From NCBI GenBank assembly GCA_003518365.1, contig DOYU01000021.1:492-64491 (forward strand): 64,000 bases of DNA, given 5' to 3'. Below the pieces are notes generated by a model. It worked only from the letters and a program-made list of their open reading frames with translations. It did not search any database and was not told where the DNA came from. Origin of the DNA: Candidatus Magasanikiibacteriota bacterium (GTDB lineage: Bacteria > Patescibacteriota > Patescibacteriia > Magasanikbacterales > UBA922). Shown here piece after piece: positions 6,453-56,086 of the stretch. A program made the translations under genes and the position numbers. Positions within the stretch are counted from its first letter, which is position 1, and each line of letters begins with the position of its first letter.

Positions 6453-6516
6453 GTGTATAACTAAAAAAATTGCCTTATGTTAGCAATTTTCTTCTTTTTT
6501 AGAAGTTTGCAAACAG

Positions 6517-6560: not shown

Positions 6561-6565
6561 AAAGA

Positions 6566-7102: not shown

Positions 7103-7116
7103 GAAATACCTCAGTG

Positions 7117-7376: not shown

Positions 7377-7895
7377 TCAGGAGCAGGTGCCGTCCGGCAC
7401 GAGCTCCACGAAGTAGGCACGAGGTTCACCCACCGATGTGTAGATGGGCAGATAACACGTGGGCACTCCCCGGTTATTCGTGAACTGATACGCCTGTTGA
7501 TGGGAGACCAAGGTCATCTGCTCGGCACCATTCTCTGGTGGAGATTCGATGAGCTCGACATGGATGGTCTGTCCCTCTGTCAGCTCAAAATCCAGGAACT
7601 CATTCTCCGCCAGGTAGCCATCCAGCTTCCCGGCATCTTCATCAAGGACTTCGTACGGTCCAAGAGAGCGCCAAATCGAAGCAGCAGACCCGTCCGGATT
7701 AAGAACGCTGATCTCGCAGGCTCCTCGGCACCAAAAGGTTCCAAAGTTCTTCTCTCCGAGGTCATGCACTACAACTTTTGCGCCGTCTGCCTTCCCGACC
7801 TTTGGTGTGTCGGATATGCCCTCAATGTCCACATCGCAACCACCAATGAAGATGGCGACCAGCGCAAGAATCATGGTGATAATCGTGAGATGCAT
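7377..7895 (-). CDS. Secreted lipoprotein, copy 3 of the tandem family
   Basis: Internal Met at MHLTIITMILALVAIFIGGCD, with GGAGGA upstream. LDGYLAENEFLDFELTEGQTIHVELIESPPENGAEQMTLVSHQ is paralogous to copy 2. Confidence 0.65.
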   Translation of the reverse strand: MHLTIITMILALVAIFIGGCDVDIEGISDTPKVGKADGAKVVVHDLGEKNFGTFWCRGACEISVLNPDGSAASIWRSLGPYEVLDEDAGKLDGYLAENEFLDFELTEGQTIHVELIESPPENGAEQMTLVSHQQAYQFTNNRGVPTCYLPIYTSVGEPRAYFVELVPDGTCS

Positions 7896-8201
7896 CGCGT
7901 CCTCCATAGAAGTATGAATACGACCATTCGTCAGCGTACGGGACCACCCCGAACACAAACGTATCTGCCGCATCCATACTTCTGTGATCTCTCAAAAATA
8001 TCATATCAAACTAGGAGTATTTTTCCTAGTTTGAATAGATGAAGATAGCGTATTTTGCGACGTTTGTCAATATATTAAATATCTGGCTGTATTGCTTACG
8101 CATGTTTCATTGTCAAATTGTTACATTGTTATATTGTTGATGATATTAAATAGATTGATATATGATAATTGTTATTTGCTATCTGAAATGTTAGCACTCT
8201 C

Positions 8202-11732: not shown

Positions 11733-14399
11733 TTATGACAACGTATCTACCAATGAGTCTGCCAATCCAATATATTTTTCTGGTGTCAGTGTAAAAAGAA
11801 ATTGTTTGTCTTCTTCAGAAATATCAAGTGTTGCGACAAAATTCCTAATTGTTAGGCTATCAAGTCGTGTTCCCCTACTCAATTCTTTTAATCGTTCATA
11901 CGCATCCTGCTGTCCATACTTTCGCAACATGGTTTGGATTGCTTCGGTAACGATTTCCGGATGTGCCTGCAATTCTTGCACAAGCGCAGACTGATTTGGG
12001 GTAATCGTAGCCATTCCTTTTATCATACTTTTTACTGCCAAGAATGCATGCGCAAGTGCTACGCCTTGATTGCGTATCATTGTGCTTCCGCTAAGATCTC
12101 TTTGCATACGTGAGACTGGCAGATGCGTCGCCAATGTTGTAAACAATCCGTTGGCAAGAGCAATATTGCCTTCAGCATGTTCAAAGTGAATCGGATTTAC
12201 TTTATGCGGCATGGTACTTGATCCAACATGTTCTTTCTCTACCATTTGTCCAAACATTCCTCGACTAATATAGAGCCACATGTCTCGCGCCAGATCGAGA
12301 AGGATGGTATTTATACGAGAAACAATCTGATAACTTTCTGCAAGTGAATCATATGTATTGACTTGCGTCGTGAGCAGTAATTGTTCAAAGCCAAGGCTTG
12401 CAAGAAATGATTTGTGAAATCGAGGCCAGTCCACGTGCGCATCGAGTATCTGGTGTGCAGCAAACGTTCCTGTTGCCCCACTGCACTTTGCATCAAATGT
12501 CATGTTTGTAAGATTCGCACGCTGCTTTTTCAGTCTCTCTACAAAGACGGCAATTTCTTTCCCGACCGTAGTGGGTGTTGCCGCTTGTCCATGCGTGAGG
12601 GCAAGCATGGGGAGTCTCGCATGTGTCTTTGCAAATGTGGTTAGTGTGCTCATCAATCTATCAAGCGTTGGAACAAAGACCGTGCTCAGTGAATCACGCC
12701 AGAGTGACAGATATGCAATGTTATTGATATCTTCTGATGTCAGTGCGATATGAATAAAGGGAATTGCATGTGAAAGACCAAGCAATGGCAATCGTTCTTG
12801 CAAAAATATTTCAACGGCTTTTACATCATGATGAATCCTTTTTTCAATCTGTTTTACACGCGCAGCATCTTCGAGAGAAAACAATGTTGAAATGTTTCTA
12901 AGCTGCTCTTTTTGTATGTCTGAAAACGAAACCAACGCCGTGAAGGTTGTTTCTTCTGCGAGTGCAATAAGATATGCAATTTCAATATGCACACGAGAGC
13001 GAATCAATGCGTATTCTGAATGATATGCTGCAAGTTCTTGGACTTGTTCATAATATCGTCCGTCGATTGGGGAAATAGCAGTCAATGCGTTGTCAGCACC
13101 TTCTGCAAGATGTGAAGACAACACAACGGTTTCTGAACGCTTTGGACCAAATGACACAATACCGATCGGACACCCGACTTCTTTTTCTATGAAAGAGAGA
13201 TATGTCTGCACTGCAGGGTCAAATCCTTGCATCGTTGTTGGCATCTCGCCTGTGTACACCTGTTGCCATCCAGAGAGCGTGGTGTACACGGGCTGCGCCT
13301 TTCGCATGTCAGACAAACTTGCCGGCATTTCGTGAACAAGTTTTCCATCAATATAATACGCCGTACATACCTTCAATTCATCAAATCCATTCAAGACATC
13401 GAGCTTTGTAATTGCAATTTCAGTGAGTGGATGTACGCGGGCACTTTGCCTTACTTGCACCAAATCAAGCCAACCAATGCGACGCGCTCTCCCTGTCGTT
13501 GTCCCATATTCTTGTCCAAGTTCGCGGATACGGTCCCCGACCGAATCAGTCAATTCTGTCACAAACGGACTTGTCCCGACACGACTAACGTATGCTTTTA
13601 CCACACCGACAATCCGCTTTGGCGCATTGATGCCAAGTCCACTTCCGACTTCTGCGTGCGCTGCGACATTGTTTGAACTTGTCGTATGTGGATACAATCC
13701 ATGATCAGGATCGAGTGACATTCCTTGTGCTCCTTCAAAAAGGATACGTTTCCCTGCTGTATACGCGTGTGCGAGTTCCACTTCGGTATCAGCAATATAT
13801 TGTTTGAGTTGTTGTCCGTATGCAAGATATTGATTCGTGATTTCTTCTTTTGAAGATTGGAAGGTGCCACGAAGAACATTGGTAATCATGCCCACGTTGA
13901 AATCATACGCTTTGTCCAATTTTTCTCGAAACAGCTCTGGCTCGAGCAAATCGCCCATACGAATTCCATGGCGATACATTTTATCTGCATAGACCGGGGC
14001 AATACCACGCTTGGTGCTTCCGGCAGCGAGCGCACCCTGATGCCCAGAGAGTGCTTCATCCATGGCAATGTGATACGGCATGATGACATGCGCGCGTTCG
14101 CTGATAGCAAGTTTCAGTGGTCTACCGTTTTTTGTGATTTCTGCGATTTCTCCGAGAAGCACGCTGGGATCAATGACAACGCCATTTCCTATCACAGAAT
14201 GGGTGTGTTCAGATACCACGCCACAGGGCAACAGATGCAATTTGTATGTTTGTTCTCCAACGACAATCGTATGCCCAGCATTATTTCCTCCGTGAAATCG
14301 AACAACATACTCTGCATCACTCGCAAGCACATCTGTGATTTTTCCTTTCCCCTCATCCCCCCATTGAGCACCCACGACAACGGTTGTTTGTGGTTTCAT
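11733..14399 (-). CDS. purA-purB: Fused adenylosuccinate synthetase (PurA, N-terminal ~425 aa) and adenylosuccinate lyase (PurB, C-terminal ~445 aa) in one 888-aa ORF
   Basis: N-terminus VVVGAQWGDEGKGKITD...GGNNAGHT is the PurA P-loop. Junction ...IVSFGPKRSETVVLSSHLAEGADNALTAISPIDGRYYEQ... has no stop; I checked it by reading the DNA. The C-terminus carries the fumarate-lyase signature GSSTMPHKVNP and the PurB start motif SPIDGRY. Confidence 0.85.
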   Translation of the reverse strand: MKPQTTVVVGAQWGDEGKGKITDVLASDAEYVVRFHGGNNAGHTIVVGEQTYKLHLLPCGVVSEHTHSVIGNGVVIDPSVLLGEIAEITKNGRPLKLAISERAHVIMPYHIAMDEALSGHQGALAAGSTKRGIAPVYADKMYRHGIRMGDLLEPELFREKLDKAYDFNVGMITNVLRGTFQSSKEEITNQYLAYGQQLKQYIADTEVELAHAYTAGKRILFEGAQGMSLDPDHGLYPHTTSSNNVAAHAEVGSGLGINAPKRIVGVVKAYVSRVGTSPFVTELTDSVGDRIRELGQEYGTTTGRARRIGWLDLVQVRQSARVHPLTEIAITKLDVLNGFDELKVCTAYYIDGKLVHEMPASLSDMRKAQPVYTTLSGWQQVYTGEMPTTMQGFDPAVQTYLSFIEKEVGCPIGIVSFGPKRSETVVLSSHLAEGADNALTAISPIDGRYYEQVQELAAYHSEYALIRSRVHIEIAYLIALAEETTFTALVSFSDIQKEQLRNISTLFSLEDAARVKQIEKRIHHDVKAVEIFLQERLPLLGLSHAIPFIHIALTSEDINNIAYLSLWRDSLSTVFVPTLDRLMSTLTTFAKTHARLPMLALTHGQAATPTTVGKEIAVFVERLKKQRANLTNMTFDAKCSGATGTFAAHQILDAHVDWPRFHKSFLASLGFEQLLLTTQVNTYDSLAESYQIVSRINTILLDLARDMWLYISRGMFGQMVEKEHVGSSTMPHKVNPIHFEHAEGNIALANGLFTTLATHLPVSRMQRDLSGSTMIRNQGVALAHAFLAVKSMIKGMATITPNQSALVQELQAHPEIVTEAIQTMLRKYGQQDAYERLKELSRGTRLDSLTIRNFVATLDISEEDKQFLFTLTPEKYIGLADSLVDTLS

Positions 14400-21411: not shown

Positions 21412-21484
21412 GGGCGCATCGTATAGTGGTAGTACATTGGTCTCCAAAACCAATTGCGTGGGTTCGATTCCTACTGCGCCTGCA
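21412..21484 (+). tRNA. tRNA-Trp (anticodon CCA)
   Basis: Manual fold: acceptor GGGCGCA/TGCGCCT with a G1-U72 wobble, D-arm GTAT/GTAC, anticodon stem TTGGT/ACCAA with loop CTCCAAA, T-arm GTGGG-TTCGATT-CCTAC. CCA is not encoded. Confidence 0.8.
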
Positions 21485-23220: not shown

Positions 23221-24198
23221 ATGTCTAAACAAACACCTACCAATAATCTCGCTATCTACCAAGCTAAAAACGGCGCGATTGAATTTCGCGGTGATTTTGA
23301 GCAAGAGACGGTTTGGGGAAATTTAAATCAAATTGCCGATCTTTTTGGTCGCGACAAGTCCGTTGTTTCCCGCCATATAAAAAACATCTATAAAACAGGC
23401 GAATTAAACGAAACGGCAACTGTTGCAAAAATTGCAACAGTTCAAAAGGAAGGAAGGAGAGAAGTGATGCGTGAAATTGAGTACTTCAACCTTGATGTTA
23501 TTTTGTCCGTTGGGTACAGAGTAGATTCCAAGCAAGCCACGCAATTCCGCAAATGGTCAACGCAAGCGCTCAAGGCACACCTTGTAGACGGGTATACCAT
23601 CAACAAAAAACGCATCGGTAATAACTACGAACACTTTTTGCGTGCAGTGGCAGAAACAAAAGCACTCCTCCCTGTGGGCAACAAGGTTTCTACCGAGGAT
23701 ATACTTGAACTCGTGAACGCATTTGCTGCTACGTGGTTTTCGCTCGATGCATATGACAAAGACGCATTTCCTCAAAAAACAGCCTCAAAAAAGTCAGTTT
23801 CAGTTGACACTGTAAAGCTACTCAATGCGATTGGTGAGTTGAAGCAAGAACTGATAACCAAAAAGCAAGCAACAAACCTATTTGCACAAGAAAGGAAGAC
23901 GGGAACAGTAGAAGGAATCGTCGGAAATGTATTTCAGTCTGCCTTTGGCAAAGATGTATATCCAAGTATAGAAGAAAAGGCCGCACACATCCTCTACTTC
24001 ATGGTAAAAAATCATCCATTCACCGATGGCAACAAGCGCAGCGGAGCCTTTGCATTTGTTTGGTTTCTACGAAAAGCTGGTTTACTCCGACCAAGTCTTA
24101 CTCCAGAAGCGTTGACTGCCATTACCCTCCTCATTGCAGAGAGTAATCCAAAAGATAAAGACAAAATGGTGGGACTAGTGGTGATGTTAATCAAATAA
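23221..24198 (+). CDS. RhuM-family N-domain fused to a Fic/Doc-type C-domain
   Basis: RhuM-like N-terminus: NLAIYQAKNGAIEFRGDFEQETVWGNLNQIADLFGRDKSVVSRHIKNI...YFNLDVILSVGYRVDSKQATQFRKWSTQ. C-terminal HPFTDGNKRSG matches the Doc/Fic motif HxFx(D/N)GNKR. Confidence 0.7.
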   Translation: MSKQTPTNNLAIYQAKNGAIEFRGDFEQETVWGNLNQIADLFGRDKSVVSRHIKNIYKTGELNETATVAKIATVQKEGRREVMREIEYFNLDVILSVGYRVDSKQATQFRKWSTQALKAHLVDGYTINKKRIGNNYEHFLRAVAETKALLPVGNKVSTEDILELVNAFAATWFSLDAYDKDAFPQKTASKKSVSVDTVKLLNAIGELKQELITKKQATNLFAQERKTGTVEGIVGNVFQSAFGKDVYPSIEEKAAHILYFMVKNHPFTDGNKRSGAFAFVWFLRKAGLLRPSLTPEALTAITLLIAESNPKDKDKMVGLVVMLIK

Positions 24199-24200
24199 CT

Positions 24201-25322
24201 ATGGCAAATAAAAACCTTACAAAAGCAAAAAAGGCAAAAAATGATGAATTTTATACTCAATTTTCAGATATTCAAAAAGAAGTTGAGTCTTATCTTGAGT
24301 ATAACCCAGATACTTTTAAAGATAAGATAATTTACAGTAATTGTGACGACCCGTTCGAAAGTAATTTCTTTCGCTATTTTGTATTAAATTTTGATCGTTT
24401 AGGACTAAAGAGACTTATTTCAACGAGCTACAAACCCTCACCTGTTGCCAATACGCAACTGGGATTATTTGGCGATGACAAAACACTTGAAAAAGTAAAA
24501 GGCCGTCCAAAAGTAACCGCTAACAAATTCATCATCAACGAAGTTGGCGATATCGACGGCGACGGCTCTTTTACGCTAGAAGATATTGCCCAACAGCTTC
24601 GAGCGAATAAAAATAACGAATGGACTCCGCTTGAGGGCGATGGTGATTTTAGAAGTGCCGAATGTGTCGAGTTGCTCAAACAATCTGACATCGTAGTTAC
24701 TAATCCTCCATTTAGTTTATTCCGTGAATATATTACGCAACTTTTCGAACACAAAAAGCAATTTCTAATTATTGGTAGCATGAACTCAATTACTTACAAA
24801 GAAATCTTTGTGTTGATTAAAAATAATAAATTGTGGTTAGGTAATGGGTTTAATGCTGGCAATGCATATTTTTCAACTCCCAATGCGCGAAAAGATTTTG
24901 CTTCTGGTGTGTATGATGAAAAAACTGGTCTTGTAAAATTTCGGAATTGTCATTGGTTTACTAATTTAGATCATGGTCGTCGTCATCAGCCTCTTAATCT
25001 GATGACAACAAATGAAAACCTAAGATTTAATAAAAAAATGCAAGGCAAAACTACTTATGATCGTTATGACAATTATGACGCTATTGATGTACCATTTACA
25101 AAAGCTATCCCTTCTGACTACGAAGGAGTAATGGGTGTTCCTATAAGCTTTCTCGATAAGTACAATCCTAATCAGTTTGAGATATTGGGCTCTGACACAG
25201 ACATAAAAGAAGGTAAACTTCCACTTTTAATAATAAGTAAATGGAATGGAAAGCTAGACAGAGGTTATATACATGGAAAGAGAATCTTCAGTAGAATGTT
25301 TATTAAGCACAAAAAGAAATAA
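24201..25322 (+). CDS. N6-adenine DNA methyltransferase (NPPF motif), tentatively EcoRI-methylase-like family
   Basis: TNPPF catalytic motif in [15 protein letters not shown]-terminal [10 protein letters not shown] block. Starts 3 nt after the upstream stop. Confidence 0.6.
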
Positions 25323-25323
25323 T

Positions 25324-26487
25324 ATGAAAACAACCTTAAAAAATGATATCACCGTTAAAGAAGTTTGCGACGGCTTTGAATACAACGAATTTGAAGGAAA
25401 AGGTTTGTTTGGTCTCTCTGGCAAACTAACTATTCAGCCAGAGTATCAGCGTAATTATATTTATGCTGACGGCAAACGTGACGTTGCTGTAATTGACTCA
25501 ATTTTAAAGGGTTATCCTATCGGTTTGATCTATTTCAATCAGGCTGGTAAAGACGAGTTTGAAGTATTAGATGGTCAACAGCGCATCACGAGTATAGGTC
25601 GTTTTGTTACTGGCAAATTTGCTGTTAAAGATAAAAACGGTCACGAGCAATACTACAGCGGTATGTCTGAGAGTCAGCGTGAGCAAATTATGAAGACTAA
25701 GTTGTTGGTGTATGTGTGCGAAGGTGACGAGCCTGAGATCAAAGATTGGTTCAAGACTATTAACATTGCTGGAGTGCCATTAACTGAACAAGAGATTCTT
25801 AACGCGGTATATTCTGGGCCATTCGTTACTCGAGCTCGTGAAGAGTTTAGTAATAGTCAAAATACCAACATCCAGAAATGGAGTGCGTACATCGCAGGTG
25901 ATATCAAGCGTCAGGCATACTTGGAACGAGCTCTAGATTGGGTTTCTGATGGATCAATCGATAGTTATATGAGCAAACACCGCAATGACAAAAATATTAC
26001 TGAACTAAAAAAACATTTTGATACTATCATTGACTGGGTCTCAACTATCTTTACTGACGTTGAGAGCGATATGAAAGGCCTTGAGTGGAACAGGATTTAT
26101 GAGACATATCACAAGAAGAAATACAATCCGACTACCATCTCTGCTTCTGTTCAGAAGCTCTATGCTGATGGTTTCGTAAAAAGTCGCAAAGGCATTTTTG
26201 AATATGTTTTAGGCGGAGAAGTTGAAACTAAACTACTTGAAATACGAGTATTTGAGGACTCAACAAAACGTTCAGTTTACGAAGCTCAAACTGCTATTGC
26301 AAAGAAAAAAGGTGTTTCAAACTGTCCACATTGTGCTATTGGGCATGATGCCAATAAAGAAAAAATTTGGACTTTAAGCGATATGGATGCTGATCATGTG
26401 GCTGCTTGGAGTAAAGGTGGAAAAACGGAAGCAAAAAACTGTGAGATGTTGTGTAAAACGCATAATCGTGCCAAAGGTAATCGGTAA
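25324..26487 (+). CDS. DUF262 (ParB/Srx-like) N-domain plus C-terminal HNH nuclease; GmrSD/SspE-like architecture
   Basis: DUF262 hallmark [11 protein letters not shown]...[13 protein letters not shown]-terminal CPHCAIGHD...[12 protein letters not shown]...[10 protein letters not shown] (CxxC...DH...N...CxxHN). Start MKTTLK sits 2 nt after the MTase stop. Confidence 0.65.
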
Positions 26488-26493
26488 AATATT

Positions 26494-27987
26494 ATGCACC
26501 TCACAAAAACCGACTATCTCGAATATACCTTTTGCAAAAAGAACCTTTGGCTCAAAAAACATAAGCCAGAGCTTTTTGAAGATGTAGAATTGTCGGAATT
26601 TGAAAAAAAAATTATTGAGGAAGGGAATTTGGCTGATGAGGCTGCAAGAAATTTATTTCCTGATGGAGAATTGATCGGTATCGTCGGAGTAAATGCTATA
26701 CCTGTTACAAAAAAGATACTGGAGAAAAACCCACCAGTATTATTTCAAGGTGCATTTTCATTCAATGACTTTTTTGTTCAAGCGGATATTTTACGTTACA
26801 ACGACATTTTAAAGGGTTGGGAACTTTACGAAGTAAAAGCAACAAATGATGTAAAACGAGAAATCCCTCATCACCATATCAACGACCTTGCGTTTCAAAA
26901 AATTGTAATTGAACAAAATGGGATACACATTATAAAAGCAGGCGTTATTCACCTTAACGGCGAATATAGACAACGAGGCAAAGTAAACTATAACGAACTG
27001 TTCATCATTGCCGAGCTTACTGATGAAGTACTAGAAGCGGAAGAACTTGTACGTGGGCAGATGCGTGATATTCACACATATATGGACATGGCAGAAGAAA
27101 AAAATTGTGAATGTTTGTATCGAGGTAGAAATGCACAATGTACAACGTTCGCTTACTCTAATCCTGAAGTGCCTGAATACTCTGTTCACGATATCAATAG
27201 AATTGGCGGAAGCAAAAAACTGTTTTTTGACTGGATAGATAGAGGGATCTACCGGCTCGAAGATATAGATAACCCAGAAAATCTTACAGGATCAAAAAAG
27301 GCACAATATACTGCGTACATAACAGGTAAGCCTCTCATAGACAAAGAAGCAATACAAAAAGAACTTGGTGAATTGGTTTTTCCTCTCCAATTTTTTGATT
27401 ACGAAGGATATTCTAGTGCTATCCCCAGCTTTAACGGCTTCGGTGCGTATGAACAAGTGCCTTTTCAATATTCACTACATACGCTCCATGAAGACGGAAC
27501 GCTTGAACACCGAGAATATCTCATCACAGAGCCAGAGAATGATTTGACTTTGCCATTGGTAGAAAGAATGAAAGAAGACTTTGATGATGTTGGTACTGTC
27601 ATATCTTGGTACAAATCATACGAATCACAACGAAACGACAAACTAGCAGAACTTCATCCAAATCATGCAGACTTTCTTATTGGCCTCAATGACAGAATGT
27701 TTGACCTCATGACAATGTTTTCCAAAAATTATTATGTGGATGCACGGTTCAAAGGGAGTGCAAGCATAAAAAATGTTCTGCCGGTCATTGTACCGGAATT
27801 AACGTACAAAGTACTTGGTATTCAAAAAGGAGATCAAGCAGTAGAACGTTGGGAAAAAATGATATTTGCAGATATTCATCCAGATGAAAAGAAAGAAATA
27901 AAAAAAGATTTGCTTGAGTATTGCAAATTGGATACTTTGGCGATGGTGAGGATTTGGGAGTTTCTAATGAAAATAAAAAATGTATGA
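26494..27987 (+). CDS. DUF2779-family protein (predicted PD-(D/E)xK-like nuclease N-domain plus RNase-H-like C-domain)
   Basis: N-terminal LTKTDYLEYTFCKKNLWL and C-terminal YCKLDTLAMVRIW are the blocks I recall for DUF2779. The identification is from memory, not searched. Confidence 0.5.
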   Translation: MHLTKTDYLEYTFCKKNLWLKKHKPELFEDVELSEFEKKIIEEGNLADEAARNLFPDGELIGIVGVNAIPVTKKILEKNPPVLFQGAFSFNDFFVQADILRYNDILKGWELYEVKATNDVKREIPHHHINDLAFQKIVIEQNGIHIIKAGVIHLNGEYRQRGKVNYNELFIIAELTDEVLEAEELVRGQMRDIHTYMDMAEEKNCECLYRGRNAQCTTFAYSNPEVPEYSVHDINRIGGSKKLFFDWIDRGIYRLEDIDNPENLTGSKKAQYTAYITGKPLIDKEAIQKELGELVFPLQFFDYEGYSSAIPSFNGFGAYEQVPFQYSLHTLHEDGTLEHREYLITEPENDLTLPLVERMKEDFDDVGTVISWYKSYESQRNDKLAELHPNHADFLIGLNDRMFDLMTMFSKNYYVDARFKGSASIKNVLPVIVPELTYKVLGIQKGDQAVERWEKMIFADIHPDEKKEIKKDLLEYCKLDTLAMVRIWEFLMKIKNV

Positions 27988-29219
27988 ATATGCACAGCCC
28001 TCTTTCTTCAATTCAACAACTACAATCAATATTAAGTAGTCCTTCGAAAAAAATCGGATTCCTTTTTGGGGCTGGAATTTCAATGGAAAAAAAAGATAAG
28101 AGTGATTTGGTGGTAGGAACTGATGACAAAAAAGATGAGAACGGTAATGTAATAAAAGAAGGAATGACAAGTCTCGCAATTAAAAATTTATCAGAGGAAC
28201 AAAAAAAAGCTGTAGATTTAATAAAGAATGAGGTTGAAACAGAAAATAAAAAATTTAACATCGAAAGTCTCTTATCAAAAATTTCTGAAAAAGAAAGAGC
28301 TGTTGGCGATCAAGAGCTTTGTGGTTTAACAAAAGAAAAATTATTAAATTTGAGAAAGGATATACAGGATAAAATAAGAGATTTGGTTTCCGTACATAGG
28401 GTGGATGATAAAGAAATTGATATTGAGGCATTAAATCACAGCACATTTGCTCAATGGATTAGTAATGCTGATAGAGAATTCTCAGTAGAAATTTTTACAA
28501 CAAATTACGATTATCTACTAGAACTAGCACTTGAAAAACAAGGAATTCCCTATTTCGATGGTTTTGTGGGTAGTTATGAAGCATTTTTTTGCCCTGAATG
28601 GATTGAAGATGACACGCCTGTCAAAAATTGGGTAAAGCTATGGAAATTACATGGTTCACTTGGTTGGGCACAGAATAGTAAAAAAGAAATAATTAGAACA
28701 TCTGGTAATACCGGTGCGGCGATGATATACCCTTCATTTTTGAAATATGACCATTCCAAAAAACAGCCATACTTGAGCTATATGGATAGATTGTCCGATT
28801 TTTTAAAGCAAGAAGATTCTGTCTTATTTGTTTGTGGTTATTCATTTGGAGATGAACATATAAATGAAATAATTTTGACAGCACTTACGCACTCTCGCTC
28901 ATCACATGTATTTGTGTTGAAAAATGGAGAAATGGAAAAATCTAGCCATCTTTCAAAAGAAATTGCACAAAAAAATTCTAGAATTTCAGTTTATGCAAAA
29001 CGTACCTGTATTATTGGAGGTAAATTTGGAGAATGGAAGCTCGATAGAGAACCAGACAGAAATGAATCCTACAACATATTAGATTATGCTTTTGATGAAG
29101 ACGCTACACCTGATGGAGTACCATGGACAGGAAGAGGTGATTTTCGTCTTGGAGACTTTAAAAAATTTACGGAGTTTTTAGAGCTTTTCTACCATAATTC
29201 GAGATATATCAATAAATGA
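27984..29219 (+). CDS. sir2: SIR2-family domain protein, the NADase partner of the SIR2-HerA system
   Basis: GFLFGAGIS...FTTNYDYLLE...KLHGSLGW...VCGYSFGDEHINEII is the SIR2_2-type motif set. The start ATG overlaps the DUF2779 stop (ATGA). Confidence 0.75.
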   Translation: MNMHSPLSSIQQLQSILSSPSKKIGFLFGAGISMEKKDKSDLVVGTDDKKDENGNVIKEGMTSLAIKNLSEEQKKAVDLIKNEVETENKKFNIESLLSKISEKERAVGDQELCGLTKEKLLNLRKDIQDKIRDLVSVHRVDDKEIDIEALNHSTFAQWISNADREFSVEIFTTNYDYLLELALEKQGIPYFDGFVGSYEAFFCPEWIEDDTPVKNWVKLWKLHGSLGWAQNSKKEIIRTSGNTGAAMIYPSFLKYDHSKKQPYLSYMDRLSDFLKQEDSVLFVCGYSFGDEHINEIILTALTHSRSSHVFVLKNGEMEKSSHLSKEIAQKNSRISVYAKRTCIIGGKFGEWKLDREPDRNESYNILDYAFDEDATPDGVPWTGRGDFRLGDFKKFTEFLELFYHNSRYINK

Positions 29220-29220
29220 C

Positions 29221-30999
29221 ATGAGAAATAAAGAGACATTTATAGGTAAAGTGAGAAGTGTCACAGGTAGTACGCTTGCTATTGAGTTACACGAAGATAT
29301 TAGATCAACGTTACCTATTATTGATGGGATATTATATAGAATTGGACAAATTGGTTCTTTTATAAGAATTCCTTTTGGTTATGTTGATTTATATGGAGTA
29401 ATTACACAAGCTGGATCAGACGCTATACCAGAAAAATTAGCGGAGCAAGAGGGTTTGAAAGGATCTCGCTGGATTAAGGCTACTCTTATTGGAGAAAGGG
29501 TCGGTAATAGATTTGAAAGAGGGGTGTTGCAATTTCCTATTGCTGATGACGAAGTTCATTTGGTCACGAAGGATGATTTGGAATTGATATATGGTGGAAT
29601 TGATGAATCAAAGTCAATAGTAGTTGGACAGGTCAGTGCCTCTGAAAATCTGTCAGCAAGAATAGATATAGACAGATTAATTAATAGACATTGCGCCATA
29701 CTTGGCTCTACAGGAAGTGGAAAATCAAATACAGTTTCTGTAATACTAGAAGCAATTGCTTCTAGACATCATGATGATGAAAATATAAAAAGTACGAGAA
29801 TTCTTTTGGTCGACCCTCATGGTGAGTATGGCGATATTTTAAAAAATTATAGTCAAATATTTAAGTTAGGAGCAGACTTGTCAAAAGGAGAAAAAGAACT
29901 AGTTGTTCCATATTGGGCTTTACCTTTTCAAGAATTTATAAAAAGTTTTCCAGGTAATCTAACTGAAAAGCAGGAAGAGTACATACGTGAAGAAATTCTA
30001 CAAAGAAAGATTAAGGCTTCTAAAAAATTAAATCCTATTCCACAAGAGGAGGCAATTACAGCTGATAGCCCTATCCCTTTCAGTATTAAACAACTATGGT
30101 TTGACCTTATTGATATAGAGCAAAAAACTTTTAATAACAAGGAGTTAACCGAAGTCGCACTCGAATCACTAGGCGATCCTGAGGCACTTAAGCCTAACAA
30201 ATACTCCATAGCGTCAACAAATAATACAGCCCCTTTCAGTAATAACAGGGTTGCGCAGGGTATTTCAAGTTTTTTAAACTTAATGCGGAATAGAATTTTA
30301 GATCAAAGATTTAAGTTTTTATTCAAACTAGACACGCTCTCTCCTGGTATTGACGGAACTATTTCAAGTGATTTAGACAGTCTCATTGAAAGTTGGATTG
30401 GGACAGAGAAACCAATAACTATTTTAGACCTATCGAGTATACCCTCTGAAATCATGGGTTCAATTTCTGGTTCTTTGCTTTCAATAATTTATGAATTTCT
30501 ATATTGGGGACAGAATGAAGATGTGGGAGGTCGCCAAACACCTATTCTGTTTGTACTAGAAGAGGCACATAATTATCTAAAGTCAGGCGAGAATTCTATT
30601 GCCTCAAGAACTGTACAAAAAATTGCAAAAGAGGGTAGAAAATATGGTTCAGGTTTACTACTCGTAACCCAACGACCTTCTGAACTGGATGATACTGTTT
30701 TGAGTCAATGTGGTTCAGTTATCGCGTTGAGAATGACAAATTCTAGCGATAGAGGCCACGTAAAGAGTGCTGTCGAGGATTCCCTAAACGAGTTAGTTGA
30801 TTTGCTTCCGAGCCTAAGAACAGGTGAAGGTTTAATTATGGGTGAATGTGTAAAATTACCTATGCGAACTAAATTTTCTAAAACTAGGGAATCTAAAAGT
30901 ACAGACCCACTTGTTTCTAAGCAGTGGAAAACAACTCTTCCAGAATCCTCTAACTATAATAAAGTTTTAGAAAATTGGAGAAATAATAAATTTTCTTAA
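29221..30999 (+). CDS. herA: HerA-like (DUF87) ATPase/helicase, partner of SIR2
   Basis: Walker A AILGSTGSGKSNTVSVILE, Walker B ILFVLEEAHNYL, and LLLVTQRPSELDDTVLSQCGSVIALRMTN (sensor/arginine-finger region). Starts 2 nt after the SIR2 stop. Confidence 0.8.
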   Translation: MRNKETFIGKVRSVTGSTLAIELHEDIRSTLPIIDGILYRIGQIGSFIRIPFGYVDLYGVITQAGSDAIPEKLAEQEGLKGSRWIKATLIGERVGNRFERGVLQFPIADDEVHLVTKDDLELIYGGIDESKSIVVGQVSASENLSARIDIDRLINRHCAILGSTGSGKSNTVSVILEAIASRHHDDENIKSTRILLVDPHGEYGDILKNYSQIFKLGADLSKGEKELVVPYWALPFQEFIKSFPGNLTEKQEEYIREEILQRKIKASKKLNPIPQEEAITADSPIPFSIKQLWFDLIDIEQKTFNNKELTEVALESLGDPEALKPNKYSIASTNNTAPFSNNRVAQGISSFLNLMRNRILDQRFKFLFKLDTLSPGIDGTISSDLDSLIESWIGTEKPITILDLSSIPSEIMGSISGSLLSIIYEFLYWGQNEDVGGRQTPILFVLEEAHNYLKSGENSIASRTVQKIAKEGRKYGSGLLLVTQRPSELDDTVLSQCGSVIALRMTNSSDRGHVKSAVEDSLNELVDLLPSLRTGEGLIMGECVKLPMRTKFSKTRESKSTDPLVSKQWKTTLPESSNYNKVLENWRNNKFS

Positions 31000-36758: not shown

Positions 36759-37283
36759 ATGGCTGCAACGCAGGGAGATATCGAACAACTCTTCATGACA
36801 CTCTACGACACGTATCAAGATGCGATTTTTCGGCATTGCTATTTTCGTGTCTATCATCGAGAGATTGCAAAAGAGCTTGCGCAAGAAGCATTCATGAAGG
36901 TCTGGAACTATCTGCAAAAAGGAAATACACTCGAACACCCCAAAGCATTTCTCTATAAAATAGCGACAAACACAGTCATCGACTACCGGCGACGAAAAAA
37001 AGAACAATCACTGGAACAACTCCAAGACACAGGATTTCAAATCGCTGATACCGATCGAATGGAAGAAACCGTGGACGGGAATATGGCCATGGCACACCTC
37101 AGAGAAGTCCTCGACACGCTCGAAGACATCTATCGCGAAGCCTTTCTCTTACGCTATATCGAAGGATTGAAACCAAAAGAAATCGCCGTGATGACTGGCG
37201 AAACCGTGAATGTCATCTCAGTAAGAATCACAAGGGCAAAACGTCAGGTACAGCAGAAGATGAAACACATCCCAACGGTATGA
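36759..37283 (+). CDS. ECF-type RNA polymerase sigma factor (sigma-70 regions 2 and 4)
   Basis: Region 2 FMKVWNYL...; region 4 LKPKEIAVMTGETVNVISVRITRAKRQV. Confidence 0.8.
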   Translation: MAATQGDIEQLFMTLYDTYQDAIFRHCYFRVYHREIAKELAQEAFMKVWNYLQKGNTLEHPKAFLYKIATNTVIDYRRRKKEQSLEQLQDTGFQIADTDRMEETVDGNMAMAHLREVLDTLEDIYREAFLLRYIEGLKPKEIAVMTGETVNVISVRITRAKRQVQQKMKHIPTV

Positions 37284-38626
37284 AAAAGCTACACAAACAA
37301 TTGAACCATGTCAGATTGACAAAGCAAGAATCGGCAGATATGCGTGGTGAGATGTTGTCATACATGAAAGAACACCCAGCAGCGGTAAGTCCTGTAAGAA
37401 AATCTGATCCTATCCGACATAGTATGGGTATAGGGAAACACTTCCCTATACGCTTACTCGTAACACACAATCGTATGTTTGCAGGAATCTTACTTGCCAT
37501 TGTGGCAGCACTCAGTGGAGGGACCGTATTTGCAGCACAAGGAGCATTGCCAGGAGATATGCTGTACCCAATAAAAGTGAACGTCAACGAAGAAGTACGT
37601 GGTGCCTTCACATTGAATACAGAAGCAAAAGTCGCATGGGAGACTACCCTTGCAGAACGTAGATCACACGAAGCAGCAACACTTGTGACAGAAGGAACAC
37701 TTGACGAAGACGTCGCAGCAGACCTTTCAGCCAGGCTCGCAACACATCTTGACAAAGCCGAATCGCTCATGGCAGAGCTGGAAGCAAAAGGAAATCTGGA
37801 AGCCGCTGCCAATGCCCAAAGTAGACTGGAAGCGTTATTGAACGTCCAACAACGCATCTTCCAATCACTTGAAGATGACGCAACCGCTGACACAGAAGAC
37901 AACACCACTACAAGCACTACAACCACAACAACGTCAACAGATACTGACGACGAGGATGATGATACAAATGATGACAATCGAAAAAATGTGTCATCAATCA
38001 CCCATATCCTCGACGCACTCGAACATAAAGCTGATGTTCAAGAACGGGTGAGAGCAGACTACGCAGACAAACTTGAGGAAAAAGATGAAGACGACCGAGC
38101 TCGTACGCTCGCTCAAACAAAACAAGTCACTGAAACAAAAATTGCAACCACAGAAAAAATCCTTCTCGCATTTGAAGAAAAAAATGGCGCACGAACAGAA
38201 GCACACACAGCATTTAACGCAGCTGTCAAGGTAAAACAAGAAGCTGATCAAAAACTTCTTGCAAAAGAATACGGCGATGCATTTGAACTCTATCACAAGG
38301 CGCAAACCATGCTTGATCGCGTTCATCTCTTCTTACGCACTTCAGCCGCTATTGGGATTGATCTCCAGATAGACACTGATCGTGATGACGACGGGGACGA
38401 CGACCGAAATCGATCAGACGAAAAACGTGAAGATGTGAATGATGAAGATACAGACGACGAGCAAAATGCTGATGATGCAGACGAGAAAGAAGATGAAGAG
38501 AAAAATGATGATGATACTGATGAAGATGACGCACTCAATATTGAGATAGAAACCGACGCACTTCTCGATATTGACGACAAAGAGACACGCAGCGAATCAA
38601 AGAGTCGCGTGAACATTGGATTGTAA
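37280..38626 (+). CDS. Anti-sigma-like membrane protein (DUF5667-type LPGDxLYPIK motif) with a highly acidic low-complexity tail
   Basis: Four-nt overlap with the sigma gene. One TM helix, LPGDMLYPIK, and D/E/T-rich repeats. Confidence 0.55.
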   Translation: MKKLHKQLNHVRLTKQESADMRGEMLSYMKEHPAAVSPVRKSDPIRHSMGIGKHFPIRLLVTHNRMFAGILLAIVAALSGGTVFAAQGALPGDMLYPIKVNVNEEVRGAFTLNTEAKVAWETTLAERRSHEAATLVTEGTLDEDVAADLSARLATHLDKAESLMAELEAKGNLEAAANAQSRLEALLNVQQRIFQSLEDDATADTEDNTTTSTTTTTTSTDTDDEDDDTNDDNRKNVSSITHILDALEHKADVQERVRADYADKLEEKDEDDRARTLAQTKQVTETKIATTEKILLAFEEKNGARTEAHTAFNAAVKVKQEADQKLLAKEYGDAFELYHKAQTMLDRVHLFLRTSAAIGIDLQIDTDRDDDGDDDRNRSDEKREDVNDEDTDDEQNADDADEKEDEEKNDDDTDEDDALNIEIETDALLDIDDKETRSESKSRVNIGL

Positions 38627-38729
38627 ATAACAATTTTTACATGATAAACCACTTGCATTCATGCTGGTGGTTTATATTTACGCTCGTTCTAATTCTATGG
38701 ATGCTTTTGATAACGGCTACAAGTAAACA

Positions 38730-38852
38730 AAGGGTTTTGAGGGGGAAGCTGTTCGAGCCTCATCGCTTGTCAATGAGTACTTTATTAGCGCCGACACAGG
38801 CGAGTTCTTCCCCCCAACACTTTTTGTTACTTTTTGGTGACAAAAAGTAAGG
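38730..38852 (+). repeat. Copy A of a ~120 bp structured repeat element: a long-range stem, internal hairpins, a T-run and a terminal 9-bp hairpin. Copy B lies at 54781-54904 and fragment C at 52066-52122.
   Basis: A and B are ~85% identical. The enclosing stem shows a compensatory change: GAGGGGGAAG/CTTCCCCCC in A versus AGGGGAAAG/CTTTCCCCT in B. Both end CACTTTTTG-TTACTTTTT-ggtgac-AAAAAGTAA-GG. Confidence 0.55.
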
Positions 38853-39001
38853 AAAGAAGTGACTTACAGTGGGTGACCTAAAAATTTGTTTACAGAATAG
38901 ACTCTCATATACTGAATGACGTTCAAACGTGCAGCATGTTACTTTCTCACGATTCTATCGTATACTATAGTAGAAGCATACAAAAAGATATCTTTTTCCC
39001 C

Positions 39002-39571
39002 ATGAACAACACACATATACAGCGTTGGGCCGATGCCGCATCACACGGAGATCGTGAAGCTTTTGGTCGTCTCTATGATCTGTATATCAAAGAGATCTAT
39101 CGCTTTGTCTATTACAAAACACATCACACACAAACGGCAGAAGATTTGACTGCAGATATTTTTGTCAAAGCAATCAAAAATATTTCCTCATATGTTCACA
39201 CCCACGGATCCTTTCGCACATGGCTCTATACCATCACGCGAAGTGCAGTCATCGATCACTATCGGACACAAAAACATGATTCGCCCATAGAAGATGCATG
39301 GGACATCGTGCCAACAAAAGATACCACACAACAAATCCATGCACGCATAGAGATAGATCAGCTCAAACCGTATCTGGCACAATTGTCATCAGAACAGCGA
39401 GATATTCTTGTTCTCAGGCTATGGCAAGCAAAAAGCTATAAAGAAATAGCAGACATCCTCGGCAAAAGTGAAGCAAGCTGCAAAATGGCATTCTCCAGAT
39501 CTCTCAAAACACTTCGTGACAACATGCCCCTTCATCTCTTCCTCATGTTTCTTACCACTCCATTCTTATGA
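39002..39571 (+). CDS. ECF-type RNA polymerase sigma factor
   Basis: YKEIADILGKSEASCKMAFSRSLKTLR is a region 4 HTH. Start at MNNTHIQRW. Confidence 0.75.
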   Translation: MNNTHIQRWADAASHGDREAFGRLYDLYIKEIYRFVYYKTHHTQTAEDLTADIFVKAIKNISSYVHTHGSFRTWLYTITRSAVIDHYRTQKHDSPIEDAWDIVPTKDTTQQIHARIEIDQLKPYLAQLSSEQRDILVLRLWQAKSYKEIADILGKSEASCKMAFSRSLKTLRDNMPLHLFLMFLTTPFL

Positions 39572-51995: not shown

Positions 51996-52173
51996 GAAAT
52001 CCCCATCGACAAATTACGTTTGCCAACAATGTTCATCATAATGTATGTACATTACAGCAACCCTCTTCCCTTAAGCTGTTTGTCCCGATTTGATCGGGAT
52101 TGGTGACAAAAAGTAAGGGAGGAAATAAAAAACGTTCGCCATATCAGCAAACGTTTTTACTATATCATGAATA

Positions 52174-53046: not shown

Positions 53047-53166
53047 AATAAATCCTGATATGCGGATAATCCAGATCAACAGATACGTATCCGTGGATCT
53101 GGATTATCTGGATATCCGTATGCTGCTACAAACAAAAACACCCCTGTTACGGGGCGTAGTGTACCA

Positions 53167-53449: not shown

Positions 53450-54700
53450 ATGAGAGTAGCCATCGTAGGTGGAGGCGCCGCTGGCATGATGTGCGCCGCA
53501 ACTATCGCAGAGGAATATCCACATGTGGAAATCTTTGTGCTCGAAAAAAACGCCTCTCTTGGCAAAAAAGTCATTATTTCCGGTGGTGGGAGATGTAATG
53601 TTACGACCGGTATAGAAGACATTGCATTGGTACTCGAAAAATATCCTCGCGGCAATAAATTTCTCCAATCTGCCATGCATCGATTTTCTCCGAGCATGGT
53701 CTATGCTTGGTTTGAAGCACATGGCGTTCCACTCAAATGTGAAGACGATTTGCGAGTGTTTCCCGTATCAAATAATGGGAAAGATATTGTGGCGGTGTTT
53801 GAAGATATATTTGAAGAAGCAGACGTTCACGTCAAATATAAACACAATGTACAAGATATAACAAAAAAAGAAACAGGATTTGTTCTTTCTTTCAAAGATC
53901 AAAATGATCTCGAGGTAGACAAGGTCGTCATGGCACTCGGTGGACAAGCGTATCGTCACACCGGATCTACTGGCGACGGATATTATATCCTCGAACAATT
54001 GGGACACACAATCACTCCCCTTGCACCAAGTCTCAATTCTTTTTTGACAAAAGAATCCTGGCCAAAAGAACTTTCTGGCCTTTCATTTCAAAAAGCAACC
54101 ATTTTTGTACACGGACAAAAAAAACAATATAACAGTACCGGCCCATTTCTCTTTACCCATACTGGTGTCAGCGGCCCGGCAGTGTTTGCACTGTCTTCTC
54201 GAATTGCATTTCTTGACTATGACAAAACGAATCCACTCGCAATACAGATAGATGTCTTTCCAGACCAGACAGAACAAGAACTTCTTGAAAGACTTCAACA
54301 AACGAGAGAAGAACACATGCAAAAAACATTCAAAAATACGTTACCCCACTTGGTAGCGAAGTCACTTGCAGAAGAAATGTGTATCCAACTCGATATTCCC
54401 CTCGATAAAAAAAATGCCGACATGAGTAAAAAAGAATTGGCACGTATCGCAACATATGTAAAAGGAATACCACTCGAAGTAATTGGACGCGGTGCAGGAG
54501 ATGAATTTGTGACTGCCGGTGGCGTCGAACTCACAGAGGTCGACCCAAAAACAATGGAATCAAAAATATGTCCTGGACTGTACTTTGCAGGAGAAATTCT
54601 TGACGTCGACGGCTATACAGGCGGATTCAACTTACAAGCGTCTTGGGCAACTGGGAATGCTGCGGGTATAGCGATTGGAAGTAATGTGCCATTAGCCTAA
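53450..54700 (+). CDS. HI0933/BaiN-like NAD(P)/FAD-dependent oxidoreductase
   Basis: VAIVGGGAAGMMCA (FAD dinucleotide fold), GGGRCNVTT, and GEILDVDGYTGGFNLQ at the C-terminus. Confidence 0.8.
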   Translation: MRVAIVGGGAAGMMCAATIAEEYPHVEIFVLEKNASLGKKVIISGGGRCNVTTGIEDIALVLEKYPRGNKFLQSAMHRFSPSMVYAWFEAHGVPLKCEDDLRVFPVSNNGKDIVAVFEDIFEEADVHVKYKHNVQDITKKETGFVLSFKDQNDLEVDKVVMALGGQAYRHTGSTGDGYYILEQLGHTITPLAPSLNSFLTKESWPKELSGLSFQKATIFVHGQKKQYNSTGPFLFTHTGVSGPAVFALSSRIAFLDYDKTNPLAIQIDVFPDQTEQELLERLQQTREEHMQKTFKNTLPHLVAKSLAEEMCIQLDIPLDKKNADMSKKELARIATYVKGIPLEVIGRGAGDEFVTAGGVELTEVDPKTMESKICPGLYFAGEILDVDGYTGGFNLQASWATGNAAGIAIGSNVPLA

Positions 54701-54955
54701 ATACCAACAATTTTGGATTTGTCACCATGACCATGACGTCTGACATTAATTTGAATTACGAAAAACATTTCTTCTTATCCAAGGGGTTTTAAGGGGAAAG
54801 CTGTTTGAGCCTAAGTGCTTGCCAATGAGTATTTTCTTAGCACCGACACAGGCGAGTTCTTTCCCCTAACACTTTTTGTTACTTTTTGGTGACAAAAAGT
54901 AAGGGAAGAAGTATATATATTATTATCTGAAACATCTTTCTTAAAAAAGAAAGTA

Positions 54956-56086
54956 TTATTTCTTATAATACTTCTTTCCCTGCAACTTCTCCGGCAAAAA
55001 ACTTTTCTTTGATCTCATCTCATACCCTTCACCATATCCAAGTTCTTTCATCAAGGCTGTCGGGGCATTCCGGACTTCCATAGGAATAGACAAATTTCCA
55101 TGTGCCTTCACATCTGCCTCTGCCGCGCGGAGGGCATCGTAGGCAGATCGATCTTTTTTACTTTCTGCGAGATAGACGACGCCGTGAGCCAAATTGATCG
55201 CGCATTCCGGCAATCCTATTGTCTCTACTGATCGAAATACTTCATTTGCCACGACGAGCGCGGTTGGCTGCGCCATGCCGATGTCTTCACTCGCAAAGAC
55301 GACCATCCTTCGCGCAATAAACTTTGGGTCTTCACCAGCATCAAGCATCCGTGCGAGATAGTACACCGCCGCATCCGGCTGGCTCGCGCGCATAGATTTG
55401 ATAAAGGCGCTAATCGTGTTGTAATGTTCCTCCCCTTTTTTATCGTAGCGCAGATGTTTTGATTGCAGCGCTTCTTTCAAATGCTCGACAGTAATGGTGG
55501 TATATAATTCTTTTGTCTGCTCTAGCATGGTCAGTGCTTGGCGTGCGTCACCGTTTGCCATAGCAATGAGCCATTCCATAGCATCGTCTGGAATATACAT
55601 CTTTGTGGCTGTCAAAATAACGCGCATATCATCTGGCGTATGTTCGTGCAAGACAAACACCCGACATCGTGATAAGAGCGCGGAGATGACTTCAAAGCTG
55701 GGATTTTCTGTGGTCGCGCCGATCAACACGATTTCTCCAGATTCCACAAACGGGAGCAGATAATCTTGTTGCGCTTTATTGAAGCGATGAATTTCGTCGA
55801 GAAACAATATTTTTTGCGAATCACTTTCTGTCTTGATCACTTTTTCTACATCAGCCTTTTTTGCAGAGACAGCAGAGAGTTCAAAAAAATTTGCACCGAG
55901 ACTTTCTGCATATATTTTTGCCAATGTTGTCTTGCCACTTCCCGGAGGCCCCCAAAGAAGAAATGAAAACATATGCCCCTGCTCGATCGCTTTGCGAAGT
56001 GGCTTTCCGGGTCCCACAAGATGTTCTTGACCAATAAAGTCGTCAAGTGCCCGCGGACGGAGTTGTGTGGCGAGTGGGGTTTTCAT
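54956..56086 (-). CDS. rarA: Replication-associated recombination protein A (AAA+)
   Basis: LRPRALDDFIGQEHLVG...LLWGPPGSGKTTLA...LFLDEIHRFNKAQQD. Confidence 0.85.
   Translation of the reverse strand: MKTPLATQLRPRALDDFIGQEHLVGPGKPLRKAIEQGHMFSFLLWGPPGSGKTTLAKIYAESLGANFFELSAVSAKKADVEKVIKTESDSQKILFLDEIHRFNKAQQDYLLPFVESGEIVLIGATTENPSFEVISALLSRCRVFVLHEHTPDDMRVILTATKMYIPDDAMEWLIAMANGDARQALTMLEQTKELYTTITVEHLKEALQSKHLRYDKKGEEHYNTISAFIKSMRASQPDAAVYYLARMLDAGEDPKFIARRMVVFASEDIGMAQPTALVVANEVFRSVETIGLPECAINLAHGVVYLAESKKDRSAYDALRAAEADVKAHGNLSIPMEVRNAPTALMKELGYGEGYEMRSKKSFLPEKLQGKKYYKK

Follow-up and report, generated by a model that had tools for sequence, protein, structure and literature searches.

The window, that is, the whole stretch of 64,000 nt analyzed here, comes from a Candidatus Magasanikbacteria of Rifle groundwater and contains three copies of a dispersed repeat: two long copies (A and B) and one short form. 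All three are intergenic and each is located 3' of a plus-strand gene. The gene upstream of copy A (37280-38626, plus strand) encodes a DUF5667 anti-sigma-like protein with long acidic, low-complexity stretches rich in Asp, Glu, and Thr, and a second ECF sigma factor gene is found 3' of this copy. Copy B is preceded by a gene for an HI0933-like flavoprotein and the short form by a gene for a GFA-family protein.

Other parts of the window have features of their own. An inverted repeat of 35 + 35 nt without a spacer (53052-53121, 83% complementary), unrelated in sequence to the repeat studied here, lies between the DUF1189 gene and rpmG. A single 888-aa open reading frame on the minus strand (11733-14399) fuses PurA (adenylosuccinate synthetase) and PurB (adenylosuccinate lyase) domains, and at 5777-7973 three paralogous genes (about 190-218 aa) stand in tandem, their spacers being repeated. 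Downstream of tRNA-Trp (21412-21483) there is a defense-type gene island (23221-30999, plus strand) with RhuM/Fic, an EcoRI-like adenine methylase, GmrSD-N, DUF2779, and SIR2_2, behind which lies a HerA helicase, a pairing known from SIR2-HerA defense systems; the position beside a tRNA suggests an integrated island. About 6-10 kb past the right end of the window (L159, 17108-20786), genes of type IV secretion or conjugation type are encoded (TraG/VirB4-like ATPase, TraC-like, and PrgI).

The copies and their parts are the following:

38727..38862, plus strand: long copy A, whole unit (covariance model R1, 140.1 bits, E 5e-38; 89% identical to copy B)
38727..38735, plus strand: copy A, P0 5' strand ACAAAGGGT, predicted to pair with ACTTTTTGT at 38819-38827 (MFE fold)
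38737..38748, plus strand: copy A, P1 5' strand TTGAGGGGGAAG, with A38740 bulged; pairs with 38807-38817
38749..38757, plus strand: copy A, 5' side of the internal loop, CTGTTCGAG (CTGTTTGAG in the other nine copies)
38758..38800, plus strand: copy A, variable apical domain P2, with an inner 5-bp helix that covaries within its subfamily
38801..38806, plus strand: copy A, 3' side of the internal loop, CGAGTT, invariant in 10/10 copies
38807..38817, plus strand: copy A, P1 3' strand CTTCCCCCCAA
38818..38859, plus strand: copy A, 3' domain, consisting of CAC, U-run 1 (38821-38825), the hairpin, and the purine-rich end GGAAAGAAG
38827..38850, plus strand: copy A, hairpin with arms TTACTTTTT (38827-38835) and AAAAAGTAA (38842-38850) and loop GGTGAC (38836-38841)
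52064..52123, plus strand: short form, 60 nt, TCTTCCCTTA-AGCTGTTTG-[TCCCGATTTGATCGGGA]-TTGGTGACAAAAAG-TAAGGGAGGA, one extended hairpin
52127..52158, no strand assigned: separate bidirectional terminator-like hairpin AAAAACGTT..AACGTTTTT, directly 3' of the short form and outside the repeat
54779..54914, plus strand: long copy B, whole unit (covariance model R1, 135.5 bits)
54780..54787, plus strand: copy B, P0
54789..54800, plus strand: copy B, P1 5' strand; pairs with 54859-54869
54801..54809 and 54853..54858, plus strand: copy B, the two sides of the internal loop
54810..54852, plus strand: copy B, P2
54879..54902, plus strand: copy B, hairpin

The repeat family put forward in the original prediction is confirmed, and the case for it is stronger than was supposed there. 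Copies A and B are 88-89% identical (89% over 133 nt without gaps, between 38728-38860 and 54780-54912 in the repeat search), with covariance model scores of 140 and 135 bits, respectively. Run with its filters off, the model recovered no further full copies in the window, and no additional copy was found when the same genome was extended past both window ends; the copy number is three in about 80 kb of this genome. The 3' 19-mer TTGGTGACAAAAAGTAAGG occurs exactly three times in the window (38834, 52100, and 54886), always on the plus strand, versus 0.03 occurrences expected by chance from shuffles. The sequence of copy B is the same in six further assemblies of the species. The predicted 9-bp hairpin, TTACTTTTT-GGTGAC-AAAAAGTAA, is present in both copies (38827-38850 and 54879-54902), and the intergenic location 3' of plus-strand genes was correctly described for all three copies. 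The compensatory changes between the 5' G-tract and its 3' partner are also real, and there are two such pairs in the window, not one: the first is GGGGGAAG/CTTCCCCC vs. GGGGAAAG/CTTTCCCC (G-C to A-U) and the second, beside the bulged A, is G-C vs. A-U.

Relatives of the repeat exist in other CPR metagenome-assembled genomes (MAGs) and in metagenomes; those of full length are 52-88% identical. An exact scan for the 19-mer in one genome per species (185,579 species) yielded seven stretches, five of which are full-length relatives in four CPR MAGs, specifically Parcubacteria SI034_bin149 (two copies), Parcubacteria BM521, Magasanikbacteria RIFOXYD12_FULL_33_17, and one Saccharibacteria MAG, while the other two are chance matches within genes. 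Scanning metagenomes added two further long variants (L012 and L020) and two short forms (L013 and L011), and the covariance model found a diverged second copy in L012 that lacks the 19-mer (L012b, 72 bits). There are thus 10 distinct long copies: L001, L002, and L007 (Parcubacteria), window copies A and B and L004 (Magasanikbacteria), L006 (Saccharibacteria), and L012a, L012b, and L020 (metagenomes). Their pairwise identity ranges from 52 to 95%, with 84% between copy A and the Saccharibacteria copy. This small sample of 10 long and three short copies was ascertained through one exact motif, and the “invariance” of the 19-mer is therefore partly a product of the exact search by which the copies were collected. 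The 16 nt 5' of the 19-mer, CACTTTTTGTTACTTT, were outside the query, yet they are identical in nine copies. Only four of the 185,579 representative genomes have the canonical 19-mer; either the family is rare, or it has diverged far beyond what was sampled.

No new members were found by a second covariance model that included the diverged copy (251 kb searched). The 19-mer has no match in IMG/VR, and a looser two-block pattern returned 120 viral stretches, with the covariance model matching none of the 80 listed loci that were scanned; phage and plasmid collections gave no meaningful match. The family is absent from Rfam 15: at gathering scores the whole window matches only three tRNAs, and at E <= 10 copies A and B, L001, and L012a/b match only eukaryotic miRNA, snoRNA, and lncRNA models at 12-20 bits. 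Exact-string searches with the tail and keyword searches on CPR RNAs and repeats returned no prior description. This family of elements of about 135 bases is thus apparently undescribed so far. Structured small RNAs and dispersed intergenic repeats are as such already known; unusual here are the architecture, the lack of terminal inverted repeats, the occurrence in several classes, and a 3' domain with three co-varying runs.

All long copies have the same order of parts: a G-run, (C)AAGGGGU, followed by P1, CUGUUUGAG, P2, CGAGUU, the P1 return, and the 3' domain, CAC-U5-GUUAC-U5-GGUGAC-A5-GUAAGG, which is followed by purines. The G-run is found at the P0 position in 10/10 long copies and is predicted to pair with ACUUUUUG through G.U. 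Being rich in G.U, P0 would be able to form in plus-strand RNA only; its covariation is low, and the pairing is a feature of the modeled fold. Since both P0 and the pairing across the loop are nearly invariant, covariation provides no test of them. Each of the 10 long copies has the motif TGTT[TC]GAG, and the sole loop change, a U to C in copy A, makes a U.G pair a C-G pair. P2 varies between 16 and 50 nt in the family, and its inner helix appears within the subfamily as TCGCT/AGCGC, GTGCT/AGCAC, or CCGCT/AGCGG. The 3' domain, from CAC to the purine-rich end, is identical in nine copies, with L012b differing. Past GTAAGG(A), conservation ends abruptly and the 3' sequence is unrelated among the copies.

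In a model alignment of the 10 long copies, both sides change in eight of the nine modeled pairs of P1. Pairing is present in 97% of the P1 cells but in only 40-57% when the partner is slid by one to three columns, and none of 500 shuffles reaches the observed covariation score. The P1 sequence is wholly different among lineages (GAGGGGAAAG/CUUUCCCC.., GGGGUGACUG/CAGUCACCC, GGGGGGAUCCGA/UCGGUCCCCCC, and GGGGUUGCAA/UUGCAUCCCC) and also between the two copies of L012, with pairing always kept. By duplex calculation, all 112 paired cells of P1 are Watson-Crick with no G.U, the mismatches being G.A, U.U, or bulges. The hairpin of L012b has two compensatory pairs, GUCC/GGAC replacing UUAC/GUAA, and both U-runs and the A-run are each one base shorter in this copy. 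A 13-bp alternative hairpin, ACUUUUUGUUACU/GGUGACAAAAAGU, is near-isoenergetic in eight of the nine canonical copies and 10 kcal/mol worse in L012b. The compensatory change and the poor alternative in L012b indicate that the 9-bp hairpin is the conserved form, and bistability of the tail between the 9-bp and 13-bp hairpins is a possibility. The folds of the long copies are stable (z about -3), and the plus-strand fold is better than the minus-strand fold in nine of 10, by up to 13 kcal/mol, because of G.U pairs in P0, UUUG/CGAG, and the tail. Selection for intramolecular pairing is beyond doubt.

The shorter copy at 52066-52122, originally described as a fragment, is not a random 3' piece but a conserved short form. 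Like the long form, it has AAGCTGTTTG and the 3' 19-mer, and its layout, ..AAGCTGTTTG, TCCCGA-loop-TCGGGA, TTGGTGACAAAAAGTAAGG, is alike in the window and in L013. Written as RNA, it reads ..AAGCUGUUUG, the GC hairpin UCCCGA-loop-UCGGGA, and UUGGUGACAAAAAGUAAGG, again the same in L013. The plus-strand fold of the window copy has -28.8 kcal/mol (z = -4.7) vs. -20.4 for the minus strand. L004 and L013 represent one locus in close strains; over about 200 nt, two substitutions and one 2-nt indel are all that separates their flanks. At this locus, 79 nt of the long form in L004 are replaced by 16 nt in L013; the difference is a replacement rather than a deletion, which points to exchange between dispersed copies. 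L011 is a decayed short form at the same locus. Relatives have a plain terminator hairpin in the GFA/DUF1189 spacer where the window has the short form. The middle of the short form is a hairpin type, TCCCGAYNNNRTCGGGA, that recurs in many Magasanikbacteria spacers. In L157 (2290-2410, minus strand), two extra 5' halves of tRNA-Val, each beside such a TCCCGAYNNNRTCGGGA hairpin, adjoin tRNA-Val (2212-2288) and tRNA-Thr (2059-2134).

The neighbors of the repeat are unrelated housekeeping genes across the loci, including ECF sigma/anti-sigma factors, HI0933-like flavoprotein, MgsA, GFA, DUF1189, RecQ, DUF5671, a LOG-like protein, FtsH, S1, S6, SSB, IF-2, thioredoxin, and VanW. According to the gene maps, five copies are located behind a co-directional gene, three lie between two genes of one strand and are antisense to both (L004, L007, and L020), and two are face-to-face; in eight of 11 loci the 3' end of the element faces a convergent gene. 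In L002 and L008 the element sits between pdxS and pdxT, with pdxT starting 16 nt after the element in L002. In L012 (3510-3858), two members separated by 78 nt are arranged head to head in the interval from SSB to a pilin-type gene cluster. Their P1 sequences differ, and the tail of one of them is diverged. Several metagenome contigs stop within 30-400 nt of the element (L013, at its contig end, L011, L006, and L020), as expected of assemblies that break at a multi-copy repeat.

The distribution is patchy at short evolutionary range as well. No copy lies within 10 kb of the gene in relatives whose MgsA is 85-90% identical; this synteny check covered five MgsA homologs, four of which contributed about 70 kb of unique, copy-free sequence. 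Between MgsA and rpmG, both the HI0933-like gene and copy B are absent in three related Magasanikbacteria (53450-54914 compared with L028-L035). In L156 the HI0933 gene is present and the spacer holds a different GC-rich hairpin cluster instead of the element. The element is absent in these relatives, but their spacers are too diverged for the junctions to be defined. No flanking direct repeat is visible at the copies, and neither the window nor the loci contain isolated extra 5' or 3' ends of the element. Among roughly 50 neighboring proteins scanned, no transposase, recombinase, reverse transcriptase, or Cas/TnpB-type protein was found near any copy, nor in the annotated part of the window. 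Copies have probably been gained and lost, and the family is patchy across very distant CPR lineages; it has probably spread horizontally. The identity between classes points to such a spread under both an RNA reading and a DNA-repeat reading.

The original prediction had proposed either a small structured RNA or a REP/MITE-like element with terminator function. The multi-copy nature and the maintained stem stand and the pair of hypotheses is still the right one, while the terminator and the hallmarks of a MITE do not hold. An intrinsic terminator is ruled out, as all hairpins of the element lack a U-tract behind them: there are no terminator-like sites on either strand in 38600-39010 or 54690-54970, the T-runs of the element occur before and inside the hairpin with none after it, and the AU-rich 9-bp hairpin is followed by GGAAAGAAG. 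The real terminators in the vicinity are separate hairpins 10-30 nt downstream (52127-52158, L001, and L007), and none was found that belongs to the element itself. As to a MITE, there is no complementarity between GGGGTTTTGAGGGG at the 5' end and AAAAAGTAAGGAAG at the 3' end, the repeat search gave no inverted pair, and neither the window nor the loci contain a parent element in which such ends enclose a transposase gene. A REP or REPIN is rejected on the size of the unit (about 135 nt, not a 20-40-nt GC-rich palindrome) and on the three copies in about 80 kb.

Several further identities were discarded. For an integron attC site, the ends, (C)AAGGGG... and ...GTAAGG, do not fit: the only GTT is in GTTACTT, a misfit to GTTRRRY, and L001 has CAGG in place of the AAC of the R''-type core (RYYYAAC). 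The differences between A and B (A/G, C/T, C/A, T/G, and more, in both directions) are not adenine-specific as in the TR/VR pair of a DGR, the two copies lie outside genes, and there is no RT. A TnpB/IscB omega-RNA is rejected by position, the neighbors being ECF sigma/anti-sigma factors, HI0933-like, MgsA, RecQ, PdxS/PdxT, FtsH, SSB, and IF-2. A protein-coding mini-gene was considered for the minus-strand frame FLTFCHQKVTKS.., which most copies leave open; stops interrupt it in copy B and L006, it is frameshifted in L012b, it lacks a start codon, and the variation is compensatory rather than synonymous. No such ORF is present in the protein collection: used as a profile against 5.8 billion proteins, the frame gave 23 word candidates, none of which scored. 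A K-turn, box C/D, group II intron domain 5, SRP, 5S, and 6S RNA, a tRNA-like fold, a Xer/dif site, a CIRCE-type operator, and rrn boxA were dropped by eye as their defining motifs are absent; all that the element has in common with the mycobacterial boxA is the 8-mer UGUUUGAG.

We read the copies, tentatively and with somewhat less than even confidence, as a patchily distributed and probably horizontally spread small structured-RNA module that is expressed from the plus strand. The plus-strand transcript would fold as an interrupted rod, consisting of the G.U-rich P0, the 12-position Watson-Crick P1, a sequence-invariant asymmetric internal loop (CUGUUUGAG/CGAGUU), and the variable apical P2. 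The rod would be followed by the U5-GUUAC-U5-GGUGAC-A5 domain, whose conserved state is the 9-bp hairpin. The invariant loop, as a putative binding site, and the 3' domain would probably be what a trans-acting protein or RNA recognizes; the stems would need only pairing. Copies would be dispersed in intergenic DNA, often opposite the 3' end of a convergent gene, and recombination may have allowed them to be gained, lost, and switched between long and short forms; the family would have passed horizontally from one CPR class to another.

That the active form is RNA, and that its strand is the plus strand, is suggested by the G.U-dependent helices, the energy advantage of this strand, and the U.G to C-G change in the loop of copy A. 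Promoter-like or -10-like boxes before the G-run and copies beyond the reach of read-through point the same way. In L001, a sigma-70-like promoter ends 2 nt 5' of the modeled unit and 6 nt 5' of TGGGG, and in most copies a -10-like hexamer is found 1-8 nt 5' of the G-run. The antisense copies of L004, L007, and L020 and the head-to-head pair of L012 make four cases that cannot be expressed by read-through. A promoter scan found no promoter upstream of copy A or B, and the window copies could be 3' UTR passengers. P1 itself would not call for RNA, since the lack of any G.U among its 112 paired cells is as expected of a DNA hairpin or of a structure needed on both strands.

Among known RNAs, 6S RNA, Y RNA, and SRP 4.5S RNA resemble the element in that their 5' and 3' ends form a covarying closing stem, their apical part is variable, and their recognition sites are located in conserved internal loops. 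The element differs from them in that it has not even a weak match to any Rfam model, their defining loops are absent, it is not universal in its lineage, and no partner gene adjoins it. A bolder reading of the 3' domain, which we consider speculative and quite improbable, is that CAC-U5-GUUAC-U5-GGUGAC-A5 forms an H-type pseudoknot with a U.A-U major-groove triple helix, in a horizontally mobile CPR small RNA whose invariant internal loop would dock a putative protein partner; it would be the bacterial counterpart of an ENE/MALAT1-type 3'-end cap. The 3' order of U-run, U-run, and A-run is that of the MALAT1/PAN ENE and of U.A-U pseudoknots (telomerase RNA, SAM-II, and preQ1-II), the polarity permits U-run 1 to be parallel to the A-run, and the three runs shorten together in L012b. 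Unlike the ENE, the element has no stem between the U-runs and its pseudoknot stem would be only CAC:GUG; the likeness is one of structural reasoning only. The joint shortening of the runs in L012b and its retained CAC/GUG fit a triple-helix pseudoknot and a two-hairpin switch equally.

The small structured RNA has to be weighed against a palindromic repeat that acts as DNA, comparable to REP/BIME or to a MITE without TIRs, which is possible but the less favored explanation. The hairpins would then be required in single-stranded DNA, where a transposase or recombinase with its gene elsewhere would mobilize the element; this enzyme would bind or cleave at the conserved loop and the 9-6-9 palindrome, and RNA folding would be a by-product. 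The purely Watson-Crick P1 fits this explanation, as do the mixed orientation relative to genes, the insertion between pdxS and pdxT, the syntenic sites without the element in close relatives, the high identity between classes, and the contigs that break at the element. The mosaic build, with long and short forms that have common ends and are swapped at one locus, and the arm-spacer-arm layout of TTACTTTTT-GGTGAC-AAAAAGTAA, as in the core site of a recombinase, also speak for it. On the other hand, there are neither terminal inverted repeats nor a recognizable target duplication, the proteins expected to move such a repeat (transposase, recombinase, reverse transcriptase) are absent near all copies, and the copy number is low. 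The two hairpins of the element are dissimilar, whereas IS200/IS605 ends are alike, and the plus strand is consistently more stable through its G.U pairs.

Known repeats of this kind share part of the organization. The REP, BIME, and REPIN elements of proteobacteria are also dispersed intergenic palindromes, often between convergent genes, with stems kept by compensatory change, a mosaic build, strain variation, and a possible location inside operons. REPs are GC-rich hairpins of 20-40 nt with a GTAG-type head, are present in hundreds of copies, and are tied to a RAYT transposase, whereas the present element has about 135 nt, invariant unpaired loops, an AU-rich second hairpin, few copies per genome, 84% identity between CPR classes, and no RAYT in sight. 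Correia/NEMIS (Neisseria), pneumococcal BOX and RUP, and enterobacterial ERIC are closer in size (100-150 nt); they are likewise non-coding and multi-copy, form long RNA hairpins, are co-transcribed with their neighbors, in some cases carry promoter elements, and are variably present among relatives. These have either terminal inverted repeats and target duplications or modular boxes A/B/C, none of which was seen here, and they are confined to a genus or family, whereas the element spans class-level lineages.

It is unlikely that the element is a 3'-UTR module that, as a terminator or a barrier to exonucleases, ends or stabilizes transcripts from the gene upstream. The three window copies behind plus-strand genes, the convergent gene at the 3' end in eight of 11 mapped loci, the stable folds (z about -3), and the lone terminator hairpin in the equivalent spacer of relatives would agree with such a role. 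A U-tract behind a hairpin and terminator-like sites at copies A and B are absent, several loci have separate terminators 3' of the element, three copies are antisense to both neighbors, and one lies within an operon; moreover, a stabilizer would have no need of an invariant internal loop or of 84% identity between classes.

It is very improbable that the element is an orphan guide-RNA scaffold comparable to a TnpB omega-RNA or a natural single guide. Here the variable DNA 3' of ...GUAAGG would be the guide for a nuclease or repressor encoded elsewhere, which would account for the sharp stop of conservation after GTAAGG(A) and the unrelated sequence beyond. The size of about 125 nt and the order of a 5' scaffold and a 3' variable part resemble omega-RNAs, and GUUUGAGC...GCGAGUU bears a loose resemblance to the repeat:anti-repeat duplexes of Cas9. 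Omega-RNAs normally overlap the 3' end of their own nuclease gene, and no TnpB, IscB, or Cas gene is present in the window or beside any copy; the Rfam models IS605-orfB and HEARO do not match.

Least credible is a cis-regulatory leader (riboswitch or attenuator) of the downstream gene, with the alternative 3' hairpins as expression platform and AAGGA as ribosome-binding site: the two near-isoenergetic tail folds in eight of nine canonical copies, the AAGGA purine tract behind the hairpin, and pdxT 16 nt downstream in L002 suit it, but it is largely refuted by gene contexts, in which the downstream gene is on the opposite strand in eight of 11 mapped loci and functionally unrelated among loci, the “platform” is far more conserved than the “aptamer,” and the alternative hairpin is 10 kcal/mol worse in L012b.

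CPR bacteria (Patescibacteria) have tiny genomes with little spare DNA, and their non-coding RNAs and repeats are hardly known. An invariant loop and 3' domain, covarying stems, multiple copies, and 84% identity between classes whose proteins are far more diverged point either to a new structured RNA with a conserved partner or to a new cross-lineage mobile element. Either outcome would offer a handle on gene exchange and RNA biology in these mostly unculturable organisms, for which the covariance model obtained in this analysis is a ready search tool.
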